From Candidatus Harrisonbacteria bacterium (lineage in GTDB: Bacteria > Patescibacteriota > Minisyncoccia > UBA6257 > 02-FULL-45-10c), in NCBI GenBank assembly GCA_016214655.1, contig JACROC010000004.1:26084-90083 (forward strand): a stretch of DNA of 64,000 bases, written 5' to 3'. Below the pieces are notes generated by a model, which was not told where the DNA came from, made no database searches, and saw only the letters and a program-made list of their open reading frames with translations. The position numbers and the translations under genes were made by a program. Every line of letters starts with the position of its first letter. Within the stretch, counting starts at the first letter, position 1. Positions 11,602-44,372 of the stretch are shown piece after piece.

Positions 11602-12615
11602 ATGAACAGCCAGCATAAGTATTACAACGCCCTGAATATCGTCTGTGGAGGCGATTATACCGAAATCAAAAGGACACTGGCAAAATCGCAAAACGCCCTA
11701 AAAACCTTAAACAAAAAAAGTGGTGTTGACGCGGAAAAAGAGTGGCAGCGCCTGGAAAAATTGGGAGCTTCTTTAATTTTAAAAGAGGATGACAACTATC
11801 CGGATCTCCTAAAACAAATCCCTTGGCCGCCCTTCGGCATCTACACCCTTGGGAACATCAATTATCCAACGCCGGCCATCGCAATCGTTGGCACGCGGTC
11901 AGCCACCCCTCAAGGAAAAGAATTATCAAGATATTTTGCCAACAACCTGGCGGCCGCCGGCCTGCCAATCATCAGCGGTTTAGCAATGGGCATTGATGAA
12001 CAAGCGCATCATGGGACCCTAGAAGCCGGTGGTAAAACCATTGCAGTTTTAGGAACTCCGTTAAATCGCCTCTACCCAAAACAAAACGAGCGGCTGGCCC
12101 TGGAAATATTAGGTAAAGATGGCGGGATAATTTCAGAGTTTCCACTGACACAAGAATACCACCCGCAAAATTTTTTAATCCGGAACAGAATAATCAGCGG
12201 CCTAACCAACGGTATATTGGTAATTGAAGCCCCGGAAAAATCCGGATCCCTGGCAACAGCCAAATTTGCGCTGGAACAAAACCGTGAAGTGTTTGTAATA
12301 CCCGGAAACATTGGAGCAAAAAATTACAAGGGCTCCAATGAACTAATCAAAGCCGGCGCTACGCCGGTAACCAGCCCGGACGATATATTAAATTATTTCA
12401 ACATCAATATCACCCAACAACGCAAGGAAAAAAATAATAAAACTGCGAATCCAGAAGAAAAAGCAATAATTGAATTGTTAAAAAATGGAGATAAATTAAC
12501 CGCTGAACAATTATGGCGCAATACTAAAATAGAAATAGCCAGCCTTAACAAAAATTTAGCCAAGTTAACGGTAAAGGGTATAATTAAAGAATCTAACGGA
12601 AAATATTATCTATGA
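11602..12615 (+). CDS. dprA: DNA processing protein DprA (Smf)
   Basis: 337 aa. The Rossmann-like DprA core reads GTRSATPQG...GLAMGIDEQAHHGTLEAGGKTIAVLGTPLNRLYP. Confidence 0.85.
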   Translation: MNSQHKYYNALNIVCGGDYTEIKRTLAKSQNALKTLNKKSGVDAEKEWQRLEKLGASLILKEDDNYPDLLKQIPWPPFGIYTLGNINYPTPAIAIVGTRSATPQGKELSRYFANNLAAAGLPIISGLAMGIDEQAHHGTLEAGGKTIAVLGTPLNRLYPKQNERLALEILGKDGGIISEFPLTQEYHPQNFLIRNRIISGLTNGILVIEAPEKSGSLATAKFALEQNREVFVIPGNIGAKNYKGSNELIKAGATPVTSPDDILNYFNINITQQRKEKNNKTANPEEKAIIELLKNGDKLTAEQLWRNTKIEIASLNKNLAKLTVKGIIKESNGKYYL

Positions 12616-14712: not shown

Positions 14713-16404
14713 ATGTCGACCCCCAAAATCCAAGAACTTATCAAAAATAATGATTTCATCCGAAGGGCCTATGATCTTGCAAAAAAACAGCATGAGGGGC
14801 AAAAACGGCAAACTGGCGATCCGTATTTCAACCATGTCTCACAGACGGCAGAGTTTGTCGCCCAGTGGGGATTAGACCAGACTGCCATCGCCGCCGCCCT
14901 ACTGCACGACACGGTAGAAGATACCGGCTATTCTCTGGAGAAAATAAAAACGGAATTTGGTGAAGAAGTATCGTTTCTGGTTGATGGCGTAACTAAACTT
15001 GGTAAAATAAAATACCGGGGGGTGGAGAGACAGGTGGAAAACCTGCGGAAAATGATCTTGGCCCTAAGCCAAGATATTAGAGTTATTATCGTCAAACTCG
15101 CAGACCGCCTGCACAACATGCAAACCCTGAATGCTGTTCCCCCGCAAAAACAAAAGCGCATCGCCCTGGAAACAATGGAGATCTACGCTCCCCTGGCTTA
15201 TCGCCTTGGAATGCAAAAAATCAGCGGGGAATTGGAGGATTTATCTTTCCCCTACATCTACCCCAGAGAATACCGCTGGCTAATCGAACATGCCAAAGAG
15301 AAATATGAGGAACGGGAACGCTATACAGAGAAGGTAAAGCCGATCGTCATGGAAGCCATCAAAAAGGCTGGGATTGACGCATTGATGATTGATTCACGGG
15401 CAAAAAGATATTCCAGTCTCTATAAAAAATTACTGCGTTATGATATGGATATTGAAAAAATTTACGATTTAGTCGCCCTGAGAATAGTAGTCAAATCGGT
15501 AGCGGATTGTTATGCAGTGCTGGGAATCATCCACAATCTTTGGCCGCCCCTACCAAATCGGATCAAAGATTATATTGCCTTGCCCAAACCGAATGGCTAC
15601 CGCAGTATCCACACCACTGTATTCTGCGTTGATAATAAAATAACCGAAATCCAAATCCGCACCCAAGAAATGCACGATGAAGCGGAAACTGGCATCGCCG
15701 CCCATTGGGCATATGAACAATTCAAAGGCACTGAGGATTATTTGGATAAGAAATCCGTAACCGCAAACAAAAAAGAGCTCCAATGGGTTCAACAACTCAG
15801 AAGCTGGCAAAAAGAATTTGCACACCCGGAAGAATTTTTAGAATCCTTAAAAATAGATTTTTTCAAGGACCGTATTTTTGCCATCACCCCAAAAGGAGAA
15901 GTTATTGATTTGCCATCCGGCGCAACCCCAGTCGATTTTGCTTACCAAATCCACACCGAAATCGGCAACAGCTGCACCGGAGCAAAAGTAAATGGAAAAA
16001 TTGTATCCCTGGATTATCGTCTCCGGTCCGGAGATATCGTAGATATTATAACTCAGAAAAATAAAAAACCCTCGGAATCCTGGATTAACTTCATTAAAAC
16101 CTCTCATGCCCGGAATCATATCCGCGCAGCCATAAAAGGAAAAACTGTCCAGTTAAGCAAAAGGGAGCCAAAAGAAGTGGAGTTAAAAATCGTAGTGGAA
16201 GACCGGGTTGGCCTGCTTAAAGACGTCACTGTCATTATTTCCAGATCTCATATCAATATAATAGCAATCAATACCATCACCAATGCTAAATTCCCAATTC
16301 TGAAAATCCGTTGCGATATTACTAATAAAGAAAAAATAGAAAAATTGCTGGTAAAACTAAAGAAATTGAAAGAGATTAAAGAGATCGGCTATCAGCTGAT
16401 TTAA
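14713..16404 (+). CDS. rel: bifunctional (p)ppGpp synthetase/hydrolase, RelA/SpoT family
   Basis: 563 aa. It has an HD domain (HDTVEDT), a synthetase domain, a TGS-like region and a C-terminal ACT-like segment. Confidence 0.85.
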   Translation: MSTPKIQELIKNNDFIRRAYDLAKKQHEGQKRQTGDPYFNHVSQTAEFVAQWGLDQTAIAAALLHDTVEDTGYSLEKIKTEFGEEVSFLVDGVTKLGKIKYRGVERQVENLRKMILALSQDIRVIIVKLADRLHNMQTLNAVPPQKQKRIALETMEIYAPLAYRLGMQKISGELEDLSFPYIYPREYRWLIEHAKEKYEERERYTEKVKPIVMEAIKKAGIDALMIDSRAKRYSSLYKKLLRYDMDIEKIYDLVALRIVVKSVADCYAVLGIIHNLWPPLPNRIKDYIALPKPNGYRSIHTTVFCVDNKITEIQIRTQEMHDEAETGIAAHWAYEQFKGTEDYLDKKSVTANKKELQWVQQLRSWQKEFAHPEEFLESLKIDFFKDRIFAITPKGEVIDLPSGATPVDFAYQIHTEIGNSCTGAKVNGKIVSLDYRLRSGDIVDIITQKNKKPSESWINFIKTSHARNHIRAAIKGKTVQLSKREPKEVELKIVVEDRVGLLKDVTVIISRSHINIIAINTITNAKFPILKIRCDITNKEKIEKLLVKLKKLKEIKEIGYQLI

Positions 16405-17479: not shown

Positions 17480-18943
17480 TTAAGGTCTAAATTCAAAATT
17501 ACCAGGAAAACGGTGTCGCTTAGCATTCGGGTCATACGGCCCAAAGACTGTATGGGAAGAAAAGGGATTATTGATGCCGCCAAAATAAATAACTTTGGTT
17601 ATAGTCTTAGCGCTCTGCCAATCAAAATCCTGCAATTGCCTGCGTAAATTATTATCTCTCAGGCAGCGCCGGATAAACTCTCCCCTGCTCCTGGCCCGAG
17701 TTTGCGGAGCGTTAACAACCATTTCTTGAACCATTTTCGGATCAACCAAATGCTTTATCAAACCCCTCTCATTCAGCAGAGCAAATATGCTCTTCCGGGG
17801 AGAAGCGCTGATATTGTGGTATTCCATATTAATTTTAAATGCCTCCGAACTGTTAAGACCAAAATGCCATTTCTTCATTTGGTTTTCCAATAAAAACCAT
17901 TTGGTTGCCCAATCCAATTCGCCAACTAATTTTCTGACCGCCTTCGCTTTAAGTAATTCCAAAATCCTTTCCCATTCCTCCAAGCACTTTTTTTCCGCTA
18001 CTGATAATGGCTTAAGCTGTCTGGCGGCTCTCAGAAATAAATAATTATATTCAACCGCAGATATGGAGCGAGACTGGAGCTGAAAACGATAATCTAAATC
18101 AAATTTAGTATTAAAGCTATGAATATCAGCTATCGGCCGCTTCAGGGTCAGGCGATGTGGCAAGCGCCAGCCTTCTTCGGCTAAGCGCAAAACTAAATGA
18201 GTTATGGTGTCCACCAGCCAAGTCTGTAATTCACAGCGAGTCGCGTCTCGGGAAATCAAATGCATCCGGCTTAAACCACAGGAAGAATCCATCAACGGCT
18301 CTTCCCTGGTATTAATTATTGCGCGCTCCGCAGTCGTACATGAACCGGCCAGCCGCTCTAAGTGATTAGCGCGCTGGGAAAAACAATAAACAAATTTTCC
18401 TTCGTACACCTCATAGATATGGCCGTTTCCGCTCAAAGGCAGCGTAGCCGGTATAAAATTCAACAATAACCGTATAACCTCTTTCCGTTTCTCGATTGCA
18501 TAGGAATAATTGTGGTGGCTGCCATAGGTAACCTCTATAGAATTTCCTATTTCATCTTCACCAGGACCGACATTATTCTTGTAGAAATTAATTACTTTCA
18601 GGTGCCGGCTGTTAACAACCATTTGCGACGCGCGAAGCAGAATTAATTCGGTAGCCTTCTCTTGTAAAATACCGTCCAATGATCCGGCCAGATGTTCCGC
18701 GCCCGCTGCCTCTAATGACTGCTGATCCTTGTAAATTCTGGAACCGTTAGAAAGCCAATAATTGAAATCGGATTTAAAAGCCAAAGCCGGCGCAACTAAG
18801 GGAATTCTGGTAAGAACGGCGTCAATAATTGAATCTCTCCATTCCGAACGAACTTCATCATCATCCCGACAACTCCGCGGAATGGGAAAAATCGTAAGCC
18901 CATATTCTTGTTCTCGTCCGCAAAGCCGCTCTGGCATCGACAT
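17480..18943 (-). CDS. Pup-ligase family protein (PafA/Dop-like carboxylate-amine ligase), divergent paralog 1
   Basis: It contains the GxExEYG N-terminal motif (LCGREQEYGL) plus FYKNNVGPGE, SHHNYSY, INTREEPLMDSSCGLSRMHLISRDATRCE and PPQTRARSRGEFI. It shares roughly 45-50 percent identity with the adjacent paralog by eye. The ORF runs to 19063, but the likely start is ATG 18943 (MSMPERL). Confidence 0.7.
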   Translation of the reverse strand: MSMPERLCGREQEYGLTIFPIPRSCRDDDEVRSEWRDSIIDAVLTRIPLVAPALAFKSDFNYWLSNGSRIYKDQQSLEAAGAEHLAGSLDGILQEKATELILLRASQMVVNSRHLKVINFYKNNVGPGEDEIGNSIEVTYGSHHNYSYAIEKRKEVIRLLLNFIPATLPLSGNGHIYEVYEGKFVYCFSQRANHLERLAGSCTTAERAIINTREEPLMDSSCGLSRMHLISRDATRCELQTWLVDTITHLVLRLAEEGWRLPHRLTLKRPIADIHSFNTKFDLDYRFQLQSRSISAVEYNYLFLRAARQLKPLSVAEKKCLEEWERILELLKAKAVRKLVGELDWATKWFLLENQMKKWHFGLNSSEAFKINMEYHNISASPRKSIFALLNERGLIKHLVDPKMVQEMVVNAPQTRARSRGEFIRRCLRDNNLRRQLQDFDWQSAKTITKVIYFGGINNPFSSHTVFGPYDPNAKRHRFPGNFEFRP

Positions 18944-19023
18944 TCCTATTTTCAAGAAGCTAGTATCTACTATAATTTGGCTGGCAGCATTTGGCAAACC
19001 CCCGCCACAATAAAAAACCCGCA

Positions 19024-20571
19024 TTACTGCGGGGTATCCTTTTTTAAATTCAAATCCCGACAAAGCTTATCAATAGAAGAACTAGTGGGAACAAACGGGT
19101 TATCCTTTTCGCCAAAATAAATCATATCTTGATAATTATTGAATTTGGCCCCGTCCCAATTGAAACGAGTCACTTGATACCAAAGGCGGGAATTAGTTTT
19201 TATTAATTCCAAAAGATCGCCGCGGCATCTTGCGCGAGTTGGCGGCGGAACCAACATCGTCCGTACAATTTCCTCTTCATCTACTAAATGCTGAATATAT
19301 CCCCGCTCCTCTAATCTCGCATACCAGCTTAGATTCGGATCGTTGCTGATATTATGGTACTCCATGTCAATAAGCCAAGCTTGCGGATCGGATAATTCAA
19401 ATCCCTCCCTTTTCATCTGTCTTCGAAGCAATTTCCATTTGGTAACCCAATCCAGCTTACCGACTAATTTATTAAAGGCCCGAGCCATTAACAATTCCAA
19501 AATTTCCTCCCAAGCCTCCAGAGCTTTCTTTTCATTATCAGAAAGCGGGCTTAATTGTTTCGCCAGATCTAAAAACAAATAATTATATTCAAATAAATCC
19601 TTTTTACCGGACAAAAGAGCCAGATAGGGGACGGCGAGGCGTACCTGATAATCAAAATTGGCTTCCAGTGAAAAATTAATTGCTTCTAATTCTGCTCTCG
19701 GATCCTTTAAATCCGGCGGCAGAACTTTTTCGTCTTCAACCTCCTCGGCTATGCGCAAAACCAAATGCATAATAGCATCCACCAACCAAGTTTGGAATTC
19801 GCAGCGCGTAGCATCATGAGAAATAATATGCAAACGACTCAACCCGCAAGACAGATCCATCAATGGCTCATCACGAGTATTGACGATCCCCCTGTCTCCT
19901 CTCAAAGTACCGGATGATTTAAGAAGATTAATATGGGGTACGCGCTGAGAAAGAGTAAAACAAAACTGATTGCCAACGCCCAAACGATGGCTGCGATAAA
20001 CATGTCCGCTGCCGGTCAAAGGAAGACTGGCCGGAATAAAATTAGTCAGCAAAGCATACACCCTTTCCCTTTTGTTTGTCTGGTAAGAATAATTATGGTG
20101 ACTGGCATAACTCACTTCGTCATAGATATCGCCGCGCTCCCCTGGGCCGACGTTATTCTTAAATAGTGAAAATTCTTGCAATCCTCTCTCTGCGATCACT
20201 TTTTCTAAAGCCCTGTTCAGAATCCTTTCAGAGGCTTTTTCTTGCAAAACACCATCCAGAGAACACGGCTCATATTCGGCGCTAGCAAATTCCAGAATTG
20301 AACCAAGGTCAATATATGTTAAACCTCCATTTCTAAGCCACAAGCGATGATTATTAGATCTGGCGTCAAAAAAATAAGCACTTTCCGATTGCATTATCTT
20401 GAAAATAATTTCACTTACAAACTCGGCTCGCCATTGCTCGCGTAAAGCTTGGACACTCTGCACAAACTCCTGCTGCGTAAGAACAGTTAGGGGCGGGAAG
20501 GGAGGGGGCATAAAAACTGGAATAATCTTCATAGCATATTCCTGCTCGCGGCCCACAAGACGATTCTGCAT
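19024..20571 (-). CDS. Pup-ligase family protein (PafA/Dop-like), divergent paralog 2
   Basis: 515 aa. Motifs: MQNRLVGREQEYAM, LFKNNVGPGE, SHHNYSY, VNTRDEPLMDLSCGLSRLHIISHDATRCE, PPPTRARCRGDLL. The HPEY segment of canonical PafA is replaced by ILEFASAEYEP. Confidence 0.7.
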   Translation of the reverse strand: MQNRLVGREQEYAMKIIPVFMPPPFPPLTVLTQQEFVQSVQALREQWRAEFVSEIIFKIMQSESAYFFDARSNNHRLWLRNGGLTYIDLGSILEFASAEYEPCSLDGVLQEKASERILNRALEKVIAERGLQEFSLFKNNVGPGERGDIYDEVSYASHHNYSYQTNKRERVYALLTNFIPASLPLTGSGHVYRSHRLGVGNQFCFTLSQRVPHINLLKSSGTLRGDRGIVNTRDEPLMDLSCGLSRLHIISHDATRCEFQTWLVDAIMHLVLRIAEEVEDEKVLPPDLKDPRAELEAINFSLEANFDYQVRLAVPYLALLSGKKDLFEYNYLFLDLAKQLSPLSDNEKKALEAWEEILELLMARAFNKLVGKLDWVTKWKLLRRQMKREGFELSDPQAWLIDMEYHNISNDPNLSWYARLEERGYIQHLVDEEEIVRTMLVPPPTRARCRGDLLELIKTNSRLWYQVTRFNWDGAKFNNYQDMIYFGEKDNPFVPTSSSIDKLCRDLNLKKDTPQ

Positions 20572-20635
20572 TTTCTTTCTTATTTTATGTCAAACAACTT
20601 ATACCCACTATACGAGCCAGCCAGAAAAAATACAA

Positions 20636-20667
20636 TAGAATCAAAAGGGTCCGACTGGGTCGGACCG
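20636..20667 (-). terminator. hairpin plus U-run just downstream of the Pup-like gene (possible attenuator or terminator)
   Basis: On the minus strand, GGTCCGACCCAGTCGGACC is followed by CTTTTGATT. Confidence 0.35.
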
Positions 20668-20675
20668 ATATATAA

Positions 20676-20873
20676 TTATTCTCCACTCTTCTGCCGGTAT
20701 TCCTGATTAAGCTCTTGCGGATCGCGGTTGCGCGCATTCTTCAGAATATTGCCAAGCTCTTCATCCGCTTCCAAATCCTTCTCTTCTTCCTCTTCTTCCT
20801 CTTCGCCATTTTTCTTCTTCTTTTTAGGCTCTTCCTTCTTTGGCGGTTTCTCCGGCGGCTTTTGCTCGCTCAT
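20676..20873 (-). CDS. pup: Pup-like prokaryotic ubiquitin-like protein with C-terminal QKSGE
   Basis: 65 aa. The N-terminal half is Lys/Glu-rich and looks disordered. The C-terminus ELNQEYRQKSGE resembles the mycobacterial Pup C-terminus (YVQKGGQ) and ends in Glu. The gene lies between PafA/Dop-family genes on the same strand. Confidence 0.65.
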   Translation of the reverse strand: MSEQKPPEKPPKKEEPKKKKKNGEEEEEEEEKDLEADEELGNILKNARNRDPQELNQEYRQKSGE

Positions 20874-20891
20874 TCTTCGCTTTTTAAACCA

Positions 20892-22361
20892 TTAAAGTCC
20901 TAAAATGGATTGTAGCACAACGGCCGTAGAATTATCAAGTACCGGATCCATCAGATCAACGGAAATATCCACTGAATCATTTACCCTAATCTTAATCCCA
21001 GACCAATCAACTTCCACCACCCGATCGCCTAATTTCTTCAAAAGTCCGCTTCTCAAAAACGCACGAGTATTAGCCGGCGCATCAAATTTAGCCGCCAGAA
21101 TCTGTTCATCCGTTACCAGCCGCTTGATTTTGCCAGATTTTACCAATTCGTAATAAAGGCCGTCACTAGCCACCTTCCGGAACAGCTTACTAAAGCCCAG
21201 TGCGGCATCCGGCTGCAATTTTGTAAGCGCCCAAGTGGTAGTCCAATCTAAATATCCGAAAGTTTTCATTGGATCCTTCTCTAGAATCTCCGACAACTCT
21301 AAAGCTTTTGCGACCGCCTGAGTATGCTGATCGGTCATTGGATGCACATTCAAATATTTTCCGGCAGCCAATAAGTACTTTCTCAATATTTCTAGACCAG
21401 TCATTCGCTGACCACCCTCTAAATCAATCATTTCTTTGAATCTGAGGTCGCGCGAGATTTTGATAATTGCTTCAACCGGTTTTTTAGGCAGCAACACTTC
21501 TTCCAAAAACCGGTCTTCAATCATGGCCAGAACTACTTGAGTCAAGGCAATCCGCAAAAAATCCGCGTATTCGCACATCAAGGCATCAGTAGAAATATCA
21601 TGAAGGCGGAAATATTTTTTAGCCGTAGCATGCGGTTCGTCACGCAAATTGAAAATCGGGCGGCTTTCCATGGTATTAATAGCCACCAATCGTTCAAAAA
21701 AATCTGCTCGCTGAGATAACTGGAAAGCGCAAGATGGGCGGTCATTTTCACTGCCGACTTTACCGCCTCCGGTCAAAATAATTCTGCTGATTTGGAATGG
21801 TAAATAATGTTGCAATAAATAAAGAAAGTTATCTTTCTCGGAAACCAAATCCCGGCTTAAAAGAATATTGAGATGGGAACCATAACTCTTGCCGGCGCCA
21901 TCGCTGTTATTTTTATGAAGCACAATTCTGTCCTTGCGGCTGGCCAGTTGGTTTAAATAAAGCCGCAAAGCATCCATCATCACCAATTCGCTGGCTTTGT
22001 CATGAACGACCAAATCCAACGGATTCAGGCACTCTGGGGTGGAATATTCCGGATGATCAACGTCCATATAAAATCGAGCGCCATTGCCCAAAAATCCGTC
22101 CAATTCCGGACCGATATTATCTGCTAGGACGTCATGAGCCGTTTCTTTAAAAAGACCGGCTACATCTTCCAAGGTAATAACGCTGGTTCGGCGGGCTTCT
22201 TTAGATTTATCATGACGGACTGCTTTTTGATATTTCAAAAATTCTTTTACAAAACTGCGCAAAATCTCCCGATATTCATCTCCCAACAATTGATTCCCGC
22301 CTTGGTCAAGAACTGAAAAACCGAATTCATTTTCTATCCCGCAAACCTTAGAGATAGCCAT
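20892..22361 (-). CDS. Pup ligase/deamidase family protein (PafA/Dop), canonical-like
   Basis: 489 aa. Strong matches to PafA signature blocks: CGIENEFGF, GNGARFYMDVDHPEYSTPEC, LHKNNSDGAGKSYGSHLN, FQLSQRADFF, SRPIFNLRDEPHATAKKYFRLHDISTDALMCEY. It sits immediately upstream of pup, as dop does in actinobacteria. Confidence 0.8.
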   Translation of the reverse strand: MAISKVCGIENEFGFSVLDQGGNQLLGDEYREILRSFVKEFLKYQKAVRHDKSKEARRTSVITLEDVAGLFKETAHDVLADNIGPELDGFLGNGARFYMDVDHPEYSTPECLNPLDLVVHDKASELVMMDALRLYLNQLASRKDRIVLHKNNSDGAGKSYGSHLNILLSRDLVSEKDNFLYLLQHYLPFQISRIILTGGGKVGSENDRPSCAFQLSQRADFFERLVAINTMESRPIFNLRDEPHATAKKYFRLHDISTDALMCEYADFLRIALTQVVLAMIEDRFLEEVLLPKKPVEAIIKISRDLRFKEMIDLEGGQRMTGLEILRKYLLAAGKYLNVHPMTDQHTQAVAKALELSEILEKDPMKTFGYLDWTTTWALTKLQPDAALGFSKLFRKVASDGLYYELVKSGKIKRLVTDEQILAAKFDAPANTRAFLRSGLLKKLGDRVVEVDWSGIKIRVNDSVDISVDLMDPVLDNSTAVVLQSILGL

Positions 22362-22420: not shown

Positions 22421-22449
22421 ACAAACAAAAACCCGACTTCCGTCGGGTA
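22421..22449 (-). terminator. rho-independent terminator after the ARC ATPase gene
   Basis: On the minus strand, ACCCGACGGAAGTCGGGT is followed by TTTTTGTTTGT. Confidence 0.45.
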
Positions 22450-22457
22450 CTAATTAC

Positions 22458-24281
22458 TTAACCAGCAAATCCTGTAATCGGCTTATTCACAGCTTCCTTG
22501 AAATTGTTTTTCAATCTTTCGACCTCTTCATCAATAGCCATGAAAAAATCCTTCTTTTTGATATCGGCAACCGGGTCCTTTTCACCAGCTACTTTTGATC
22601 TATGATATCTTTCTAATGCAATCATTTTGGCGCCATCAACGATACTCTTAATAATCGCACCGGAAAGATAGTTCTTCAACATCACATCTTCATTGCCCTT
22701 TACAGTTTCAACCCGGAAAATATTATTAACTGTCAATTCGGTGCCATCGCTAAATCTGATTTTAACTTCTCTGCCAGTATACGCCAATCGCTTAGCAATA
22801 AGATCGATGAAATGCTCGCGAATTTTTTCTAAATCACCACTCAGAACTACCTCCTCCTCTTCACCACTACCAAAAGAATCAATATATTTGTAAATATGGT
22901 TTTCAAGATATTTTCTAGAAAACGGGAGGTCGGCAGCAAGATAAATCCGGAGGATTTCTTTGACATCCCGCATGGTTTTAGGACGAGGAATAAAAACATC
23001 AACACCTAATCTTCCGGGACGTAAAATTGCCTTGTCCACTAAGTCCTTACGATTAGTCGCGGCCAAGACCAAGATATTTCCCAGGGGATCCACTCCATCA
23101 AGAATTTGATTAAACTGACCAATGTCGGTCGCCATCCAAGGCTCATGCTCCGAGGTGTCACGGCTCCGAAAAAGCGAGTCGATTTCATCTATGAAAACTA
23201 CCACTAGCGCTCCTTCAGCTGCCTTTTCTTTGGCTCTAGCAAAAACTTCCCGGATTTTTCTGGCAGTTTCGCCTACATATTTATGGGTAAGTTCTGCTCC
23301 GCCAATATTCATGAAAAAGCAAGGCAAACCCAACGATCGTCCGAGGTCCGCACCGATGGCTTTAGCGCAAAGAGTTTTTCCGCAGCCCTCTGGCCCATGA
23401 AGAATCAAGCCCTTGGGCATATCCTTTCCCTTAAAAACCTTCACGTAAACTTCTCTCTCTTTAAATGGCAAAAGGATGCGCTGGATTTTCTTAACCGATT
23501 TGGAAAGGCCGCCAACCTGATCCCAAGTGATATCGCTGACATTCTGCAGATCTAAAAAGTGCTCTGACTCTTCGGTTTTGGGTAAAACCCGAATCAGCAC
23601 CCCGCCGCAATTCAAAAGCCGGTCTCCGTCTTTTAATCTCGTTTCTTTCAAATCTGGACTGATATAGCATTGCTGTATCTCGTTATGAGAACTCTCGACT
23701 TCTGCCAATTCCGGATTAATATATGACCGGAAAGTAACAGCCGAGCCCCAATTCCAATATAGCTTAGTCACTTCCACGACCTGACTCTTCCCGTTAACAC
23801 CCACTTCCCAGCCGGATTTTAAATCAGTAGCCTTCGTATTTGGTATTGCCAGCGGCAATTTTCTAAACTGTCCTTCAATTAATACATCAACCTCTTCCAG
23901 TTTGCCGCCGGGATGAGGCCGGACGAATATGCCGTAAGTAAGAGGCGGAGAAGCTAATTGCTCCCGCCATTTCTTACGCCAATTCTCGACCTCCTCCAGC
24001 GCCTTTTTATAACGCTCTTTTTCCTTGGCGCACTCTACCAGTCTCTTCAACAGCCTCTGAATCTCCTCTGATAGCTGGACCCGCTCATGGCGAAGCTGTT
24101 GATTCTCCTCCGCCTTCGCCTCAAGACGCTTGATTCTTTCGTGTGCATCTTGTAATTGATTTAGTAATTCTTTCTCTTGGTGATTCTCCTTTTGGGCGTT
24201 TCCACTTTTCCCTTTTCGTAAACGCTCGAGAAAAACACTTAAATCAGACATTTTCCATTTCATATCCAAATCCCTTATCAA
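22458..24281 (-). CDS. ARC/Mpa-like AAA+ ATPase (N-terminal coiled coil, OB-like region, single AAA module)
   Basis: 607 aa. The N-terminal coiled coil reads ELLNQLQDAHERIKRLEAKAEENQQLRHERVQLSEEIQRLLKRL. It is followed by a beta-rich OB-like region, Walker A GPEGCGKT and Walker B VVFIDEIDS. The C-terminus is ...KPITGFAG, with no GQYL/HbYX tail. Confidence 0.75.
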   Translation of the reverse strand: MIRDLDMKWKMSDLSVFLERLRKGKSGNAQKENHQEKELLNQLQDAHERIKRLEAKAEENQQLRHERVQLSEEIQRLLKRLVECAKEKERYKKALEEVENWRKKWREQLASPPLTYGIFVRPHPGGKLEEVDVLIEGQFRKLPLAIPNTKATDLKSGWEVGVNGKSQVVEVTKLYWNWGSAVTFRSYINPELAEVESSHNEIQQCYISPDLKETRLKDGDRLLNCGGVLIRVLPKTEESEHFLDLQNVSDITWDQVGGLSKSVKKIQRILLPFKEREVYVKVFKGKDMPKGLILHGPEGCGKTLCAKAIGADLGRSLGLPCFFMNIGGAELTHKYVGETARKIREVFARAKEKAAEGALVVVFIDEIDSLFRSRDTSEHEPWMATDIGQFNQILDGVDPLGNILVLAATNRKDLVDKAILRPGRLGVDVFIPRPKTMRDVKEILRIYLAADLPFSRKYLENHIYKYIDSFGSGEEEEVVLSGDLEKIREHFIDLIAKRLAYTGREVKIRFSDGTELTVNNIFRVETVKGNEDVMLKNYLSGAIIKSIVDGAKMIALERYHRSKVAGEKDPVADIKKKDFFMAIDEEVERLKNNFKEAVNKPITGFAG

Positions 24282-24359: not shown

Positions 24360-24968
24360 TTAATCAGCGCTTGCTCTGCAGCCGGGACACAGACATCCCT
24401 CAGCCTTTTTCCATCGCGGATACCTATAAAGGCCGCCGGATAAACAAGTTAGATAGGTGTGAAATCCGGATCTGCCGGTAAAATGCAGATCCACTTCCCG
24501 CATCTTCCAAGTATCGCCTCCTGGCCAAGCCTGTAGGGGATTATTTAATGAATACCAGACTCCGTCACGCTCTTGCCAGCGATCAGAAACCCAGCCTAAA
24601 GTGTAACGATAGCTGCCAGGAACCAACTCAAATTCAACTTCTTTGCAGCTTTTAAGCTGTTCGTAAGATTCGATTAAATTTCCAATTACCGGAAAAAGCT
24701 TTAATATCCCAAACACAAAATTCCTAAGCAGATCAATTCGTAACAAGAATCCGGTTAAATAAAGAAAAGCTGCAACCAGAGATACATTAAATAAAAAATT
24801 AAGGAAAAGGTTTCCGGTAAAAGAAAATCCTATTTTCTCAAAAAGCCCCCAGGCCAACACCCAAAGATAGTATAAAACATAGGCAAGTATAGAAAAGATT
24901 GCCCAAAAAAGAAGCCCTTCTTTCTGAATCGCCGACTGCCTAGCCCAAAATCCCTTCTTCTCTCCCAT
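24360..24968 (-). CDS. hypothetical polytopic membrane protein
   Basis: 202 aa with several TM helices. No family recognised. Confidence 0.4.
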   Translation of the reverse strand: MGEKKGFWARQSAIQKEGLLFWAIFSILAYVLYYLWVLAWGLFEKIGFSFTGNLFLNFLFNVSLVAAFLYLTGFLLRIDLLRNFVFGILKLFPVIGNLIESYEQLKSCKEVEFELVPGSYRYTLGWVSDRWQERDGVWYSLNNPLQAWPGGDTWKMREVDLHFTGRSGFHTYLTCLSGGLYRYPRWKKAEGCLCPGCRASAD

Positions 24969-25726: not shown

Positions 25727-26167
25727 TTAAAACGGTAAATCTTCCGACTTAATTTCTCCTTCACCGACATCGATAGTTGGCAAAGTTTCGGCTGCAGCTT
25801 GATCAACACCGGAACTAACACCTCCGGCTTTAGCCCCCGCTGGCCGGGGACCCAACTGCATTCTCTCACAAATTATCTCAGTCGTCCTCCGCTTCTGCCC
25901 GTCCTTTCCCTCCCATTCCCGAGTCTGCAATCTCCCCTCAATCAGAACCAAACTTCCTTTAGTTAGAAAACGGCTCGCAACTTCGGCTTGGCGCCCCCAA
26001 ACTACCACATTATGAAATTCTGTAGCATCCTTTTTTGCGCCAGATTGATCTGTCCAAACGCGGTTGGTTGCAACACCAAAACTAGCTACCTGCTGGCCGC
26101 TATTAGTAGAACGAAGCTGTGGATCGGCAGTCAATCTGCCCAAAACAAAAACTTTATTAAGATTCAT
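25727..26167 (-). CDS. ssb: single-stranded DNA-binding protein
   Basis: 146 aa. It has an OB fold (NKVFVLGRLTADPQLR...FHNVVVWGRQAE), a disordered Gly/Ala linker and an acidic DLPF C-terminal tip. Confidence 0.85.
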   Translation of the reverse strand: MNLNKVFVLGRLTADPQLRSTNSGQQVASFGVATNRVWTDQSGAKKDATEFHNVVVWGRQAEVASRFLTKGSLVLIEGRLQTREWEGKDGQKRRTTEIICERMQLGPRPAGAKAGGVSSGVDQAAAETLPTIDVGEGEIKSEDLPF

Positions 26168-34185: not shown

Positions 34186-34578
34186 TCATTTTTCCGAAAC
34201 CGATTTCAGCCAGCCACCGAGCATTCTTCCGATTTCCTGCAGCAGCGATTGGAGCCGGACATATTTTTTCGCATCAATAATTTTTATTTCCTTCAAAAGC
34301 CTCACTAATATTTTCAAAGTATCAAACTTAGAACTAGCCTTCTGAAGAGCAACGTATTTGCCGGACTTGTTAATGCCGGCCGCAAAAAGAATCAGCTCTA
34401 AAAATTCTAAGGCGGCATCTTCACATCTTTTACCAAGAGTATAGCGATCTTTCTTTGGAAAAAGTTCTGCATAGGAATAAAATAACTTATAAAAATCGTA
34501 AATTTTCTGTACGATAGGAGTATCCAGATGCAATCCCTCTTCTTGAATATGAAAATTGTCCATAATATTTTTGATCAA
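34186..34578 (-). CDS. Avd-like four-helix-bundle accessory protein (23S rRNA-intervening-sequence protein family)
   Basis: About 130 aa, helical, similar to four-helix-bundle proteins found beside DGR reverse transcriptases. It starts at TTG 34578 or ATG 34563. It is divergent from and slightly overlaps the RT gene. Confidence 0.55.
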   Translation of the reverse strand: MIKNIMDNFHIQEEGLHLDTPIVQKIYDFYKLFYSYAELFPKKDRYTLGKRCEDAALEFLELILFAAGINKSGKYVALQKASSKFDTLKILVRLLKEIKIIDAKKYVRLQSLLQEIGRMLGGWLKSVSEK

Positions 34579-35592
34579 ATTATTTCTTTAGAAAACCTTT
34601 TTCACGCCTGGGATATATTTAAAGTCGGCAAAAGAAGCAAGGCCGATGTCCAGGAATTTGAAAGAAATCTTGAAGATAATATTTTTGCGCTGCATAAAGA
34701 ATTAGAAGATAAAACTTATATTCATAGAGGCTATACCTCTTTTTACATAACCGATCCCAAAGTCCGCCATATTCATAAAGCCCTGGTAAGAGATCGCGTG
34801 ATCCACCACGCTCTCTTTAATGTGCTCTATCCGATTTTTGATAAGACCTTTATCTCTGAATCGTATTCCTGCCGTATCAATAAAGGTACTCATAAAGCAG
34901 TGGATCGCTTCCAAATATATTCGCAAAAAGTAACTAAAAATCACACTAAAAAATGTTTTGTCTTGAAATGCGATATTCAAAAGTTTTTTGCGAGCATTGA
35001 TCATGCTATTTTAAAAACGTTTATAGAAAATAAAATTAAAGATAAAAACGTCTTATGGCTTATAAATATAATTATTGATAGTTTTCACTCAGAAGTAGGG
35101 CTGAATAAAGGCGCGCCAATTGGCAATTTAACTTCTCAATTATTTGCCAATATCTATCTCACTGAACTTGATCAATTTATAAAACAAAACTTAAAAATCC
35201 CTTACTACATTCGATACACGGATGACTTTGTTATCTTGAGTGAAAGTAAAGAATTTTTAATAAAGCTTATCCCAATAATTGAAAAATTCCTGAAATCCAA
35301 CTTAAAACTCACTTTGCACCCCAATAAAATCAGTATCAGGCCATATCATCAGGGAATTGATTTCTTGGGTTACGTACTGTTTCCCCATCATCGCACTCCA
35401 AGGACTCGCACCCGAAGGAGAATCTTTAATAAATTGGAATCTAATATAGCGCTTTGTAAAAATGAGAAGATTCCTATCACCACCCTTGATAATTCTTTGC
35501 AATCTTACTTTGGGTTTTTGAAGCACGCGAATTCCTACAAACTAACGCAAAAATTAAAAAACCAGATTTGGTTCTGGCTGCAAGAAAAATAA
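34528..35592 (+). CDS. diversity-generating retroelement reverse transcriptase
   Basis: 354 aa. RT motifs are present, including YIRYTDDFVIL (YxDD). The DGR-specific motif 4 reads IGNLTSQLF (IGxxxSQ, in place of the group II QGxxxSP). The N-terminus is typical of DGR RTs. Confidence 0.85.
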   Translation: MQSLFLNMKIVHNIFDQIISLENLFHAWDIFKVGKRSKADVQEFERNLEDNIFALHKELEDKTYIHRGYTSFYITDPKVRHIHKALVRDRVIHHALFNVLYPIFDKTFISESYSCRINKGTHKAVDRFQIYSQKVTKNHTKKCFVLKCDIQKFFASIDHAILKTFIENKIKDKNVLWLINIIIDSFHSEVGLNKGAPIGNLTSQLFANIYLTELDQFIKQNLKIPYYIRYTDDFVILSESKEFLIKLIPIIEKFLKSNLKLTLHPNKISIRPYHQGIDFLGYVLFPHHRTPRTRTRRRIFNKLESNIALCKNEKIPITTLDNSLQSYFGFLKHANSYKLTQKLKNQIWFWLQEK

Positions 35593-36656: not shown

Positions 36657-37787
36657 TTATTTTCCGAATAAATCTACATATTCGTGCAACTCAAAAGACC
36701 GGTTGCGCGAGAAGCCGGTTTTTTCTTTTAGCACCCCTTTCTGCTCAAACTCATTTACGAGACGAGTTGCCGTTACGAATGCAACTCCGAGTTTTTCGGC
36801 AATCTGGTTTATATTCATAATCGGCTGGGAAAAGAGCCTGAGCAATAATTGCTGACCCAATTCGGCGCGACGCCCCATAGCAACAATTTTTCTTTCGTAA
36901 CGCTGTCGGAGAATGATAATTTTTTCAAATGTTTCTTTTCCTTTTGTTGCCGTTTCAATGACGCCCGATAAGAAGAACTTGATCCATTGTTCGATATTGT
37001 CCGAAGCTCGAACCACCATAAGCGAATCGTAATATGCCCCCTTATTTCTTTCAAAGAAATCTGAAAGATATAAAGTCGGTTTTTGAAGCACGCCTGCTTC
37101 CACCAGTTGCAGGGTGATAAGTAAGCGTCCAACCCTACCATTGCCGTCAAGAAATGGGTGGATAGTTTCAAATTGATAATGACTCATCGCCATCTTAATC
37201 AAAAGCGGAATATCAAGTATTTTATTGTGCCAGAACTTTTCAAGATCGGAAAGCAGCTCTGACACTTCGCTTGGATGCGGCGGGATGAAGAACGCGTCTT
37301 TCAAACTTGAACCGCCAATCCAATTCTGGCTTACCCGTATTTCTCCCGGAGTTTTATATTCGCCACGGACACTTGTAAGCAACATTTTATGCGCACCCCT
37401 TAATAAACGCATCGAGAGGGGCAAGCTCTGAAGTTCTTTGATTGCATGATTTATAGCCGCAATATAATTTTGCACCTCTTTCCAATCATCGCGTCTTTCC
37501 GGATTTACGTCCTCTCTCCGCAGAAGCACCTCGTCAATTCCCGTTTTAGTTCCTTCAATGCGGCTGGAAGTCGTTGCTTCTTTTGCTATGTGCATTTTAA
37601 TGAAATAGTCGACATCCGGCACAAGCGTCGAATAAGCATTCAGTTCGCCCAAAAGCCGCATTGCTTCGCTTAAAAGTAAATTAATCTTGGCATCTTGCCA
37701 CTTAAAAGGCTTGTTGATTGCAGATGGGCTGAAGCTCTTGTATTCCAACTGTTGTTTATACGCACCCGCCTTAAATGATTGTTCCAT
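36657..37787 (-). CDS. Fic family protein (Fic/Doc, probable AMPylase) with C-terminal winged helix
   Basis: 376 aa. The canonical Fic motif [14 protein letters not shown] (HPFx[DE]GNGRxxR) is present. Confidence 0.8.
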
Positions 37788-40842: not shown

Positions 40843-40963
40843 CCCTAGCAAATCCTACTTTCTCGCCAACTCGAAGTCGGTAATATCATCGGAGATATAG
40901 GCTTTCACTTCCGAGTTCGGAATGGGATCGGGTGGGACACCTATAGCTAAATCACTAGGAGAC
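40843..40963 (-). rRNA. rrf: 5S ribosomal RNA
   Basis: The reverse complement contains GTCCCACCCGATCCCATTCCGAACTCGGAAGTGAAA, matching the 5S consensus. It lies about 60 nt downstream of the 23S 3' end. Confidence 0.8.
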
Positions 40964-41023
40964 AAAATAATACACGGATTTTAAAAAAATGTAATTAAGA
41001 ATGAATACTAACTTAAGAGGTCA

Positions 41024-44372
<3,349 letters not shown>

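Follow-up and report, generated by a model that had tools for sequence, protein, structure and literature searches.

Does an ATPase of the Mpa/ARC type that ends short of the proteasome-docking motif still serve a 20S core particle, or does it work on its own? The question is raised by a gene in a 64,000-nucleotide stretch of contig JACROC010000004.1 from Candidatus Harrisonbacteria bacterium (positions 26,084 to 90,083 of the forward strand; GenBank assembly GCA_016214655.1), referred to below as the window. According to NCBI taxonomy, the source belongs to the Parcubacteria group within Patescibacteria, or Candidate Phyla Radiation (CPR). The gene, an open reading frame (ORF) for an ARC/Mpa-like AAA ATPase at 22458..24281 on the minus strand, stands next to genes for a Dop-like protein, a Pup-like protein and two PafA-like ligases. 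By analogy with known ARC proteins, we consider that the window ARC is probably a stand-alone, tag-dependent unfoldase of a proteasome-free Pup-like system. Since the segment that docks the 20S is lost and the operon contains no prcBA, its output would most likely be remodelling or disassembly of targets and not delivery to a proteasome.

The ORF encodes 607 residues when read from a TTG codon at 24281. We prefer the ATG at 24263 as the start codon because an AAGGGA Shine–Dalgarno-like box lies 7 nt upstream of it, and because both an identical NCBI protein (P0001, annotated as “AAA family ATPase”) and the closest homologue (P0002) begin with MKW. The likelier coding sequence is therefore 22458..24263, encoding 601 residues, and residue numbers below follow this form unless stated otherwise.

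Homology to Mpa was evident in both structure and sequence. A Foldseek search of the PDB gave chains of Mycobacterium tuberculosis (Mtb) Mpa as all of its first 30 matches, with E values of 1e-37 to 7e-31, approximately 31% identity and alignments of about 490 columns; Rpt subunits came next. BLASTP against a PDB-derived Mpa sequence gave 30% identity across residues 53-550. The original prediction had described an Mpa/ARC architecture consisting of a coiled coil, an OB-like region and one AAA module, and this description was confirmed by Pfam, Foldseek and an AlphaFold model with a mean predicted local distance difference test score of 82.5. The N-terminal coiled coil (residues 27-104; 23952..24185, on the minus strand as are all domains of the protein) was modelled as one continuous helix of 78 residues. 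BLASTP aligned it from residue 53 with the coiled-coil region of Mpa, and on this alignment it appears to be the counterpart of the Pup-binding element in Mpa. Two barrels in the model correspond to tandem OB domains (residues 109-226; 23586..23939), which carry FVRPHPGG, a motif specific to the clade described below; the Pfam family Prot_ATP_ID_OB_N scored 20.7 bits on the protein, below its cutoff of 23.4.

The single AAA module (residues 254-441; 22941..23504) was recognized by Pfam, alignment and the AlphaFold model, with the Pfam AAA match itself at residues 292-432 in the 607-residue numbering. It contains Walker A (GPEGCGKT, 290-297), a pore loop (KYVG, 328-331), Walker B (VVFIDE, 355-360), sensor-1 N404 and the Arg fingers R415 and R418, and these catalytic motifs were intact and invariant throughout the family alignments. 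Two tandem AAA modules, a trait of Cdc48 and Cpa, were not found in the protein: the Cdc48 matches aligned twice to the same single module. The lid region carries two additional hairpins. One is an inserted beta-hairpin (residues 457-473; 22845..22895) that is missing from Mtb Mpa and from Rokubacteria-type homologues, and the other is a clade-specific hairpin (residues 500-512, EVKIRFSDGTELTV) that, with the hairpin corresponding to beta16-beta17 of Mpa, forms a four-stranded sheet (residues 500-528; 22680..22766). The last helix (residues 570-593, DFFMAIDEEVERLKNNFKEAVN; 22485..22556) is strongly conserved within the clade.

The C-terminal sequence reads ...NKPITGFAG and is followed by a TAA stop codon at 22458-22460. 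As had been predicted, the protein thus ends in KPITGFAG with neither a GQYL motif nor an HbYX motif (hydrophobic residue, Tyr, any residue). The idea that a frameshift, a sequencing error or a wrong stop codon conceals a GQYL end or an extended ORF is effectively refuted. Translation of all three downstream frames revealed no tail with a penultimate Tyr and gave stops within a few codons, and 10 nt past the stop codon lies a GC-rich, intrinsic-terminator-like hairpin of 7 bp followed by a T run (22448..22431, minus strand). In addition, 25 other sequences end at the same alignment column.

These sequences and the window ARC form a clade of 26 members, 23 from a homology search and three cluster representatives from an exhaustive search. 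The clade was sharply set apart in the homology search, with scores of at least 498 bits followed by a drop to 246 bits. The other 25 sequences derived from NCBI, JGI, ENA and Logan assemblies where a source was given. None of the 26, which come from independent assemblies, has a Gly-x-Tyr-x end and all stop at the same alignment position; this uniformity marks the truncation as a trait of the lineage rather than an artefact. One member, P0008 (...VGFK), has Phe and not Tyr at the penultimate position. The members share the motif DFFxAIDEExxRLK...[I/L/M]xGF. Nearly all of the next-best homologues (Rokubacteria/Methylomirabilota and others) end in GQYL, GQYI or GHYF.

Two features of related proteins were seen in passing. 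In a subgroup of the CPR-type ARCs (P0012, P0015, P0016, P0019 and P0020, 665-721 residues; for example at L006 10001-12157 and in L009), an N-terminal second OB1-OB2 copy replaces most of the coiled coil and gives four OB domains per subunit. Another homologue, P0105 (L089 3920-5689), ends in GHYL and has a lid insertion where the CPR clade has its first hairpin insertion; its contig stops right after the ARC gene. A neighbour-joining (NJ) tree did not group P0105 with the CPR clade, and the insertion reflects either shared ancestry or convergence.

The truncation removes more than the terminal motif. In the alignment, the end PITGFAG of the window ARC corresponds to Mpa R572-I-S-G-K-K-G578, and the counterpart of Mpa 579-609, approximately 31 residues, is absent; it comprises beta18 (ERIVYIRTL), a linker of about 20 residues and GQYL. 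Helix alpha13 and strands beta16-18 constitute a beta-grasp domain specific to Mpa, in which beta18 helps to dock the 20S (PMC9599533), and productive engagement of Mpa with the 20S needs both the beta-grasp domain and GQYL (PMC9599533, PMC12288473). According to the alignment and the AlphaFold model, the window ARC keeps the beta16-beta17 hairpin equivalent and the final helix, lacks beta18 and has the extra hairpin that makes the sheet four-stranded. The equivalents of the hairpin-tip residues that contact the 20S (Mpa N502, D504, K505 and E506) are not conserved within the clade. An I-x-G junction is retained immediately ahead of the truncation point, while the Phe that follows it in the clade is new; canonical ARCs have Lys there (ISGKKGE junction). 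The remaining end, KPITGFAG (22461..22484, minus strand), holds the clade-conserved G598-F599, and these last eight residues are predicted to be disordered. Most simply, the clade-specific hairpin and Phe599 would cover the surface bared by the loss of beta18, the last eight residues being of low confidence in the model.

The gene neighbourhood provides the second line of evidence. Downstream of the ARC gene, all on the minus strand, are a Dop-like Pup_ligase-family gene (20892..22361, 489 residues, with a Dop-loop insert), a Pup-like ORF of 65 residues in the position of pup (20678..20873), a terminator-like hairpin (20666..20648), a first PafA-like Pup_ligase-family gene (19024..20571, 515 residues) and a second one (17480..19063, 527 residues) whose listed ORF overlaps the first; parB follows. 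Upstream lie genes for a PAP2 phosphatase, SSB, S6, rpoC and rpoB. Nine related CPR loci were available (L001, L004, L006, L008, L009, L010, L090 and L091, with L002 duplicating L001), and their ARCs are 44-67% identical to the window ARC. In eight of them the sequence continues past the ARC gene for at least about 3.4 kb, and in one (L009) for only 2.2 kb. The order rpoB-rpoC-S6-SSB-(S18)-PAP2-ARC-Dop-Pup-like-PafA-like(-PafA-like)-ParB was found in the eight longer loci.

The canonical slot for prcB-prcA between pup and pafA is empty in the eight CPR loci that reach that far. Among the 46 window ORFs scanned with Pfam, no member of the proteasome (PF00227), ClpP, Lon or HslV families was detected. 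A tblastn search with Pfam-verified PrcB and PrcA found no match in the window or in CPR loci L001-L010, there were no PF00227 gene calls in L090 and L091, and no ClpP, Lon or HslV gene was present in the window or any related locus. The claim that the missing motif fits a proteasome-independent role was therefore upheld in part: the loss of beta18 and the lack of 20S genes in the window and the related loci agree with it, and the absence of the motif by itself is not diagnostic.

The last point follows from the C-termini of other ARC proteins. An exhaustive search of 50%-identity cluster representatives yielded approximately 70 ARC-like proteins, of which about 27 have a penultimate Tyr. The Streptomyces ARC ends in NTGQYL and Mtb Mpa in NLGQYL. 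A coherent group of shorter ARCs stops just after beta18 and lacks the Tyr; it includes “proteasome ATPase [Micrococcus sp.]”, which ends in ...TAGAGA and is encoded in a locus (L092) with the order arc-dop-...-pup-pafA-pafBC and no PF00227 gene. A subgroup of Actinobacteria without prcBA is described in reviews, one of which names Corynebacterium glutamicum explicitly, and a non-degradative role has been proposed for the ARC of this species, namely taking apart pupylated ferritin (PMC8223512, PMC12288473); it is the one species for which such tag-dependent disassembly is described (PMC8223512). On the basis of the Micrococcus ARC and locus together with C. glutamicum, loss of GQYL in proteasome-free Pup systems is a known pattern, and the CPR clade is a further, more radical example of it. 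The expected pairing of tail and proteasome thus held for Micrococcus, without GQYL and without PF00227 at its Pup locus, and for the GQYL-bearing ARCs of Streptomyces and Mtb, and it failed in Verrucomicrobia, as described next. The nearest GQYL-bearing homologue, the Rokubacteria ARC P0036, had no dop, pup or prcBA nearby and was uninformative on the linkage to the 20S.

Several observations weigh against reading the window ARC as a stand-alone, tag-dependent unfoldase. The NCBIfam profile pup_AAA (TIGR03689) scored 283.4 bits, compared with an equivalog cutoff of 504.75, and its match was restricted to positions 18-390 of 512. A literature search on pupylation in CPR, Parcubacteria or Patescibacteria found nothing relevant among the papers searched, and we know of no experiments on any CPR Pup system; a 2017 paper on UBact reportedly lists some candidate phyla. 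ARCs without a penultimate Tyr co-occur with prcBA in Verrucomicrobia. In Methylacidiphilum fumariolicum SolV, the operon (L012 8834-15514) is ARC-Dop-UBact-PrcB-PrcA-PafA, with PF00227 matches of 92.6 and 22.4 bits and a UBact match of 78.5 bits, and its ARC ends in ...KKMVSGVV; in a second verrucomicrobial locus (L013), prcB-prcA are likewise in the operon and the ARC ends in ...GVSAVV. Furthermore, Cpa binds the 20S in vitro without a penultimate-Tyr motif (PMC6466877). Because M. fumariolicum and L013 carry prcBA in the operon, a missing GQYL is not diagnostic, and taken alone it does not argue against a 20S partner. What weighs more in CPR is that beta18 is gone as well and that the prcBA slot is empty in every relative extending that far.

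In other verrucomicrobial genomes, the Chthoniobacterales ARCs end in a conserved ...SGVI, and for most of their loci (within L011-L087) the 10 kb that follow showed neither UBact nor prcBA.

The case of Cpa, and those of Verrucomicrobia if their ARCs serve the 20S encoded with them, show that non-canonical docking exists, which gives some standing to the alternative that a 20S is encoded elsewhere in the genome and that the window ARC docks to it by an interface independent of GQYL. The search for the 20S covered the 64-kb window, a part of the source genome, and the 10-kb flanks in the relatives. Against this alternative, the ARCs of Verrucomicrobia still have beta18 and a conserved tail, both of which the CPR clade has lost; the hairpin-tip residues that would contact the 20S are variable in the clade; and prcBA are absent from the pup-pafA slot in all eight CPR loci extending that far. 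CPR genomes are, moreover, small and reduced. We regard a distant 20S with non-canonical docking as unlikely.

A further point against the stand-alone, tag-dependent unfoldase concerns the tag. The Pup-like ORFs did not match the Pfam families Pup and UBact even at E<=10, and their assignment is putative, depending on position, composition and a G-[EQ] end. The window ORF begins with a Lys-rich part, continues with poly-Glu and ends in ...EYRQKSGE. The counterparts in relatives (L001 13417-13611, L004 13361-13549, L006 13768-13986 and L010 12174-12386) likewise have a Lys-rich N-terminus, a poly-Glu middle and a G-E or G-Q end, and the CPR Pup-like ORFs may represent an undescribed class of Pup-like tag. 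The missing family match would also suit an ATPase that works independently of the Pup-like protein as a general unfoldase or chaperone, with the neighbouring ligases serving another purpose, as would those clade members that have a second OB1-OB2 pair where most of the coiled coil would lie. The ARC-Dop-Pup-PafA order is, however, strictly conserved in every CPR locus examined, and the window ARC keeps its 78-residue coiled-coil helix, so that we find such tag-independent activity doubtful.

The ligase genes themselves are unusual in number. Three tandem Pup_ligase-family paralogues, one Dop-like and two PafA-like, occupy 17480..22361 on the minus strand, whereas Actinobacteria have one Dop and one PafA. 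The PafA-like duplication is also found in L001, L004, L090 and L091, and L010 has what look like split or truncated versions of the two, with ORFs of 380, 363 and 99 residues.

The conserved Gly-Phe near the end of the protein raises another objection, since it could be a docking motif for a different partner. It is present in 25 of the 26 clade members, usually after I, L or M, with the Phe 0-9 residues and mostly two residues from the end. We rejected Gly-Phe as an HbYX-like motif, the Phe not being at a fixed penultimate position. One explanation is that the [I/L/M]-x-Gly-Phe sequence on the flexible end docks another partner, a ClpP-type peptidase being one candidate. Such docking would lead from Pup to non-proteasomal degradation, and the idea is modelled on the IGF/LGF loops found in ClpX and ClpA. 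Its near-universal presence in the clade within a segment predicted to be disordered is compatible with this, as is the fact that the Phe is clade-specific, canonical ARCs having Lys there. Yet the I-x-G was inherited from the canonical ISGKKGE junction, leaving only the Phe as new, and neither the window nor the related loci contain a ClpP, Lon or HslV gene; a peptidase-docking end would seem very unlikely. In a broader form of the idea, the whole C-terminal face of the ARC, with its two new hairpins and flexible Gly-Phe end, would have been rebuilt to dock a non-20S partner, defining a new Pup-dependent pathway in ultrasmall CPR bacteria. Candidate partners would then include a ClpP-like protease, a membrane protease and the additional PafA-like paralogue, and we view this scenario as a speculative one with little chance of being right.

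It had also been proposed that the system never had a 20S partner, a part of the original prediction that the evidence does not support. In most other ARC lineages the penultimate residue is still aromatic, as it is in the PAN and Rpt ATPases, and the window ARC retains the beta-grasp hairpin and the I-x-G junction in an operon with the canonical order minus prcBA. For these reasons, secondary loss is the most likely origin of the tail-less state and a more parsimonious one than a system that never had a 20S. In an NJ tree rooted on Cdc48 D2, the CPR clade was monophyletic, long-stemmed and nested among other ARCs and was not basal; the tree has no bootstrap values and short backbone branches and was used as weak support for secondary loss. 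Secondary loss has also been proposed for the proteasome-free Actinobacteria (PMC8223512).

Taking the window ARC as a stand-alone unfoldase after such a loss, a working cycle can be proposed by analogy with Mpa and the C. glutamicum ARC. A PafA-like ligase would use the C-terminal Glu of the small, disordered Pup-like protein to join it to lysines on its targets; in those relatives whose tags end in Gln, Dop would first deamidate the tag. The ARC hexamer would take up the tag on its N-terminal coiled coils and, by hydrolysing ATP, thread it first through the double OB ring and then through the AAA pore, so that the target is unfolded or complexes are pulled apart. The Dop-like enzyme would then remove or recycle the tag.

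The surroundings of the operon contain other features. A predicted membrane protein of 202 residues without a Pfam or NCBIfam match is encoded at 24360..24968 (minus strand) between the PAP2 and ARC genes, overlapping the PAP2 stop codon; L004 has a counterpart of 197 residues, and L006 has no room for one. Also near the locus are genes for a Fic/DOC protein (36657..37787, minus strand), a full-length RelA/SpoT homologue (14713..16404, plus strand) and DprA (11602..12615, plus strand), and in several CPR relatives synteny with the Pup module extends to RelA and TopA. A lone ORF upstream of rpoB (34528..35592, plus strand) has a reverse-transcriptase domain (RVT_1, 81.7 bits) and could be part of a group II intron, a retron or a diversity-generating retroelement. 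The 23S rRNA gene (41013..44351, minus strand) is 3339 nt long compared with 2925 nt in the Rfam model, indicating approximately 400 nt of insertions, and is adjoined by a 5S rRNA gene (40843..40959, minus strand). The 16S rRNA gene is absent from the window, and the rRNA genes are therefore unlinked.

Accounts of pupylation usually treat it as the way by which bacterial proteins reach the proteasome, and the proteasome-free Actinobacteria are the main exception known. Here, a complete ARC-Dop-Pup-PafA module, its tag being the putative Pup-like protein, lies without nearby 20S genes in a conserved core neighbourhood (rpoBC ... parB) in several Parcubacteria-group lineages, and its ARC has lost the C-terminal elements that dock the 20S (beta18, linker and GQYL) while the hairpin-tip contacts are not conserved. 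If these genomes prove to be 20S-free, they would be independent evidence for a selectable, degradation-independent function of Pup and ARC that is retained even in minimal genomes, and the clade would offer a natural minimal ARC for the study of tag-driven unfolding. For annotation, labels such as “proteasome ATPase” and “proteasome-associated ATPase” can mislead; conversely, the absence of GQYL is no proof that a proteasome is absent.

Among known systems, Mpa and the actinobacterial ARCs resemble the window ARC in having a coiled coil, a double ring of OB domains and one AAA module whose Walker, pore-loop and Arg-finger motifs are the same; they also share its beta16-beta17 hairpin and its gene position directly upstream of dop and pup. 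Compared with Mpa, the window ARC lacks beta18, the linker and GQYL, has two extra lid hairpins and a longer coiled coil, and its operon has no prcBA after pup. The archaeal PAN and eukaryotic Rpt1-6 ATPases, the next-best structural matches after Mpa, have the same layout of coiled coil, OB and AAA; they differ in having one OB domain, no beta-grasp element and an HbYX end (PMC9599533, PMC8223512), whereas the window ARC has two OB domains and no HbYX. The Verrucomicrobia UBact systems also have a non-actinobacterial operon of ARC, Dop, a small tag and PafA, with an ARC lacking the penultimate Tyr and a tag end (...RYRQRTGE) that resembles the ...EYRQKSGE of the window. In contrast to the CPR loci, the verrucomicrobial operon has prcB and prcA, its tag matches Pfam UBact, and its ARC keeps beta18 and a ...SGV[IV] end. 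The closest functional analogue is the proteasome-free actinobacterial ARC (C. glutamicum, Micrococcus), which likewise belongs to a Pup locus without prcBA and lacks GQYL. The actinobacterial proteins keep beta18 and stop shortly after it, whereas in CPR the protein ends ahead of beta18 and carries compensating insertions; the CPR operon also differs in its two PafA-like genes and in a Pup-like protein that falls outside Pfam Pup. In the NJ tree, with no bootstrap and a weak backbone, the CPR clade was separate from the cluster containing Micrococcus.

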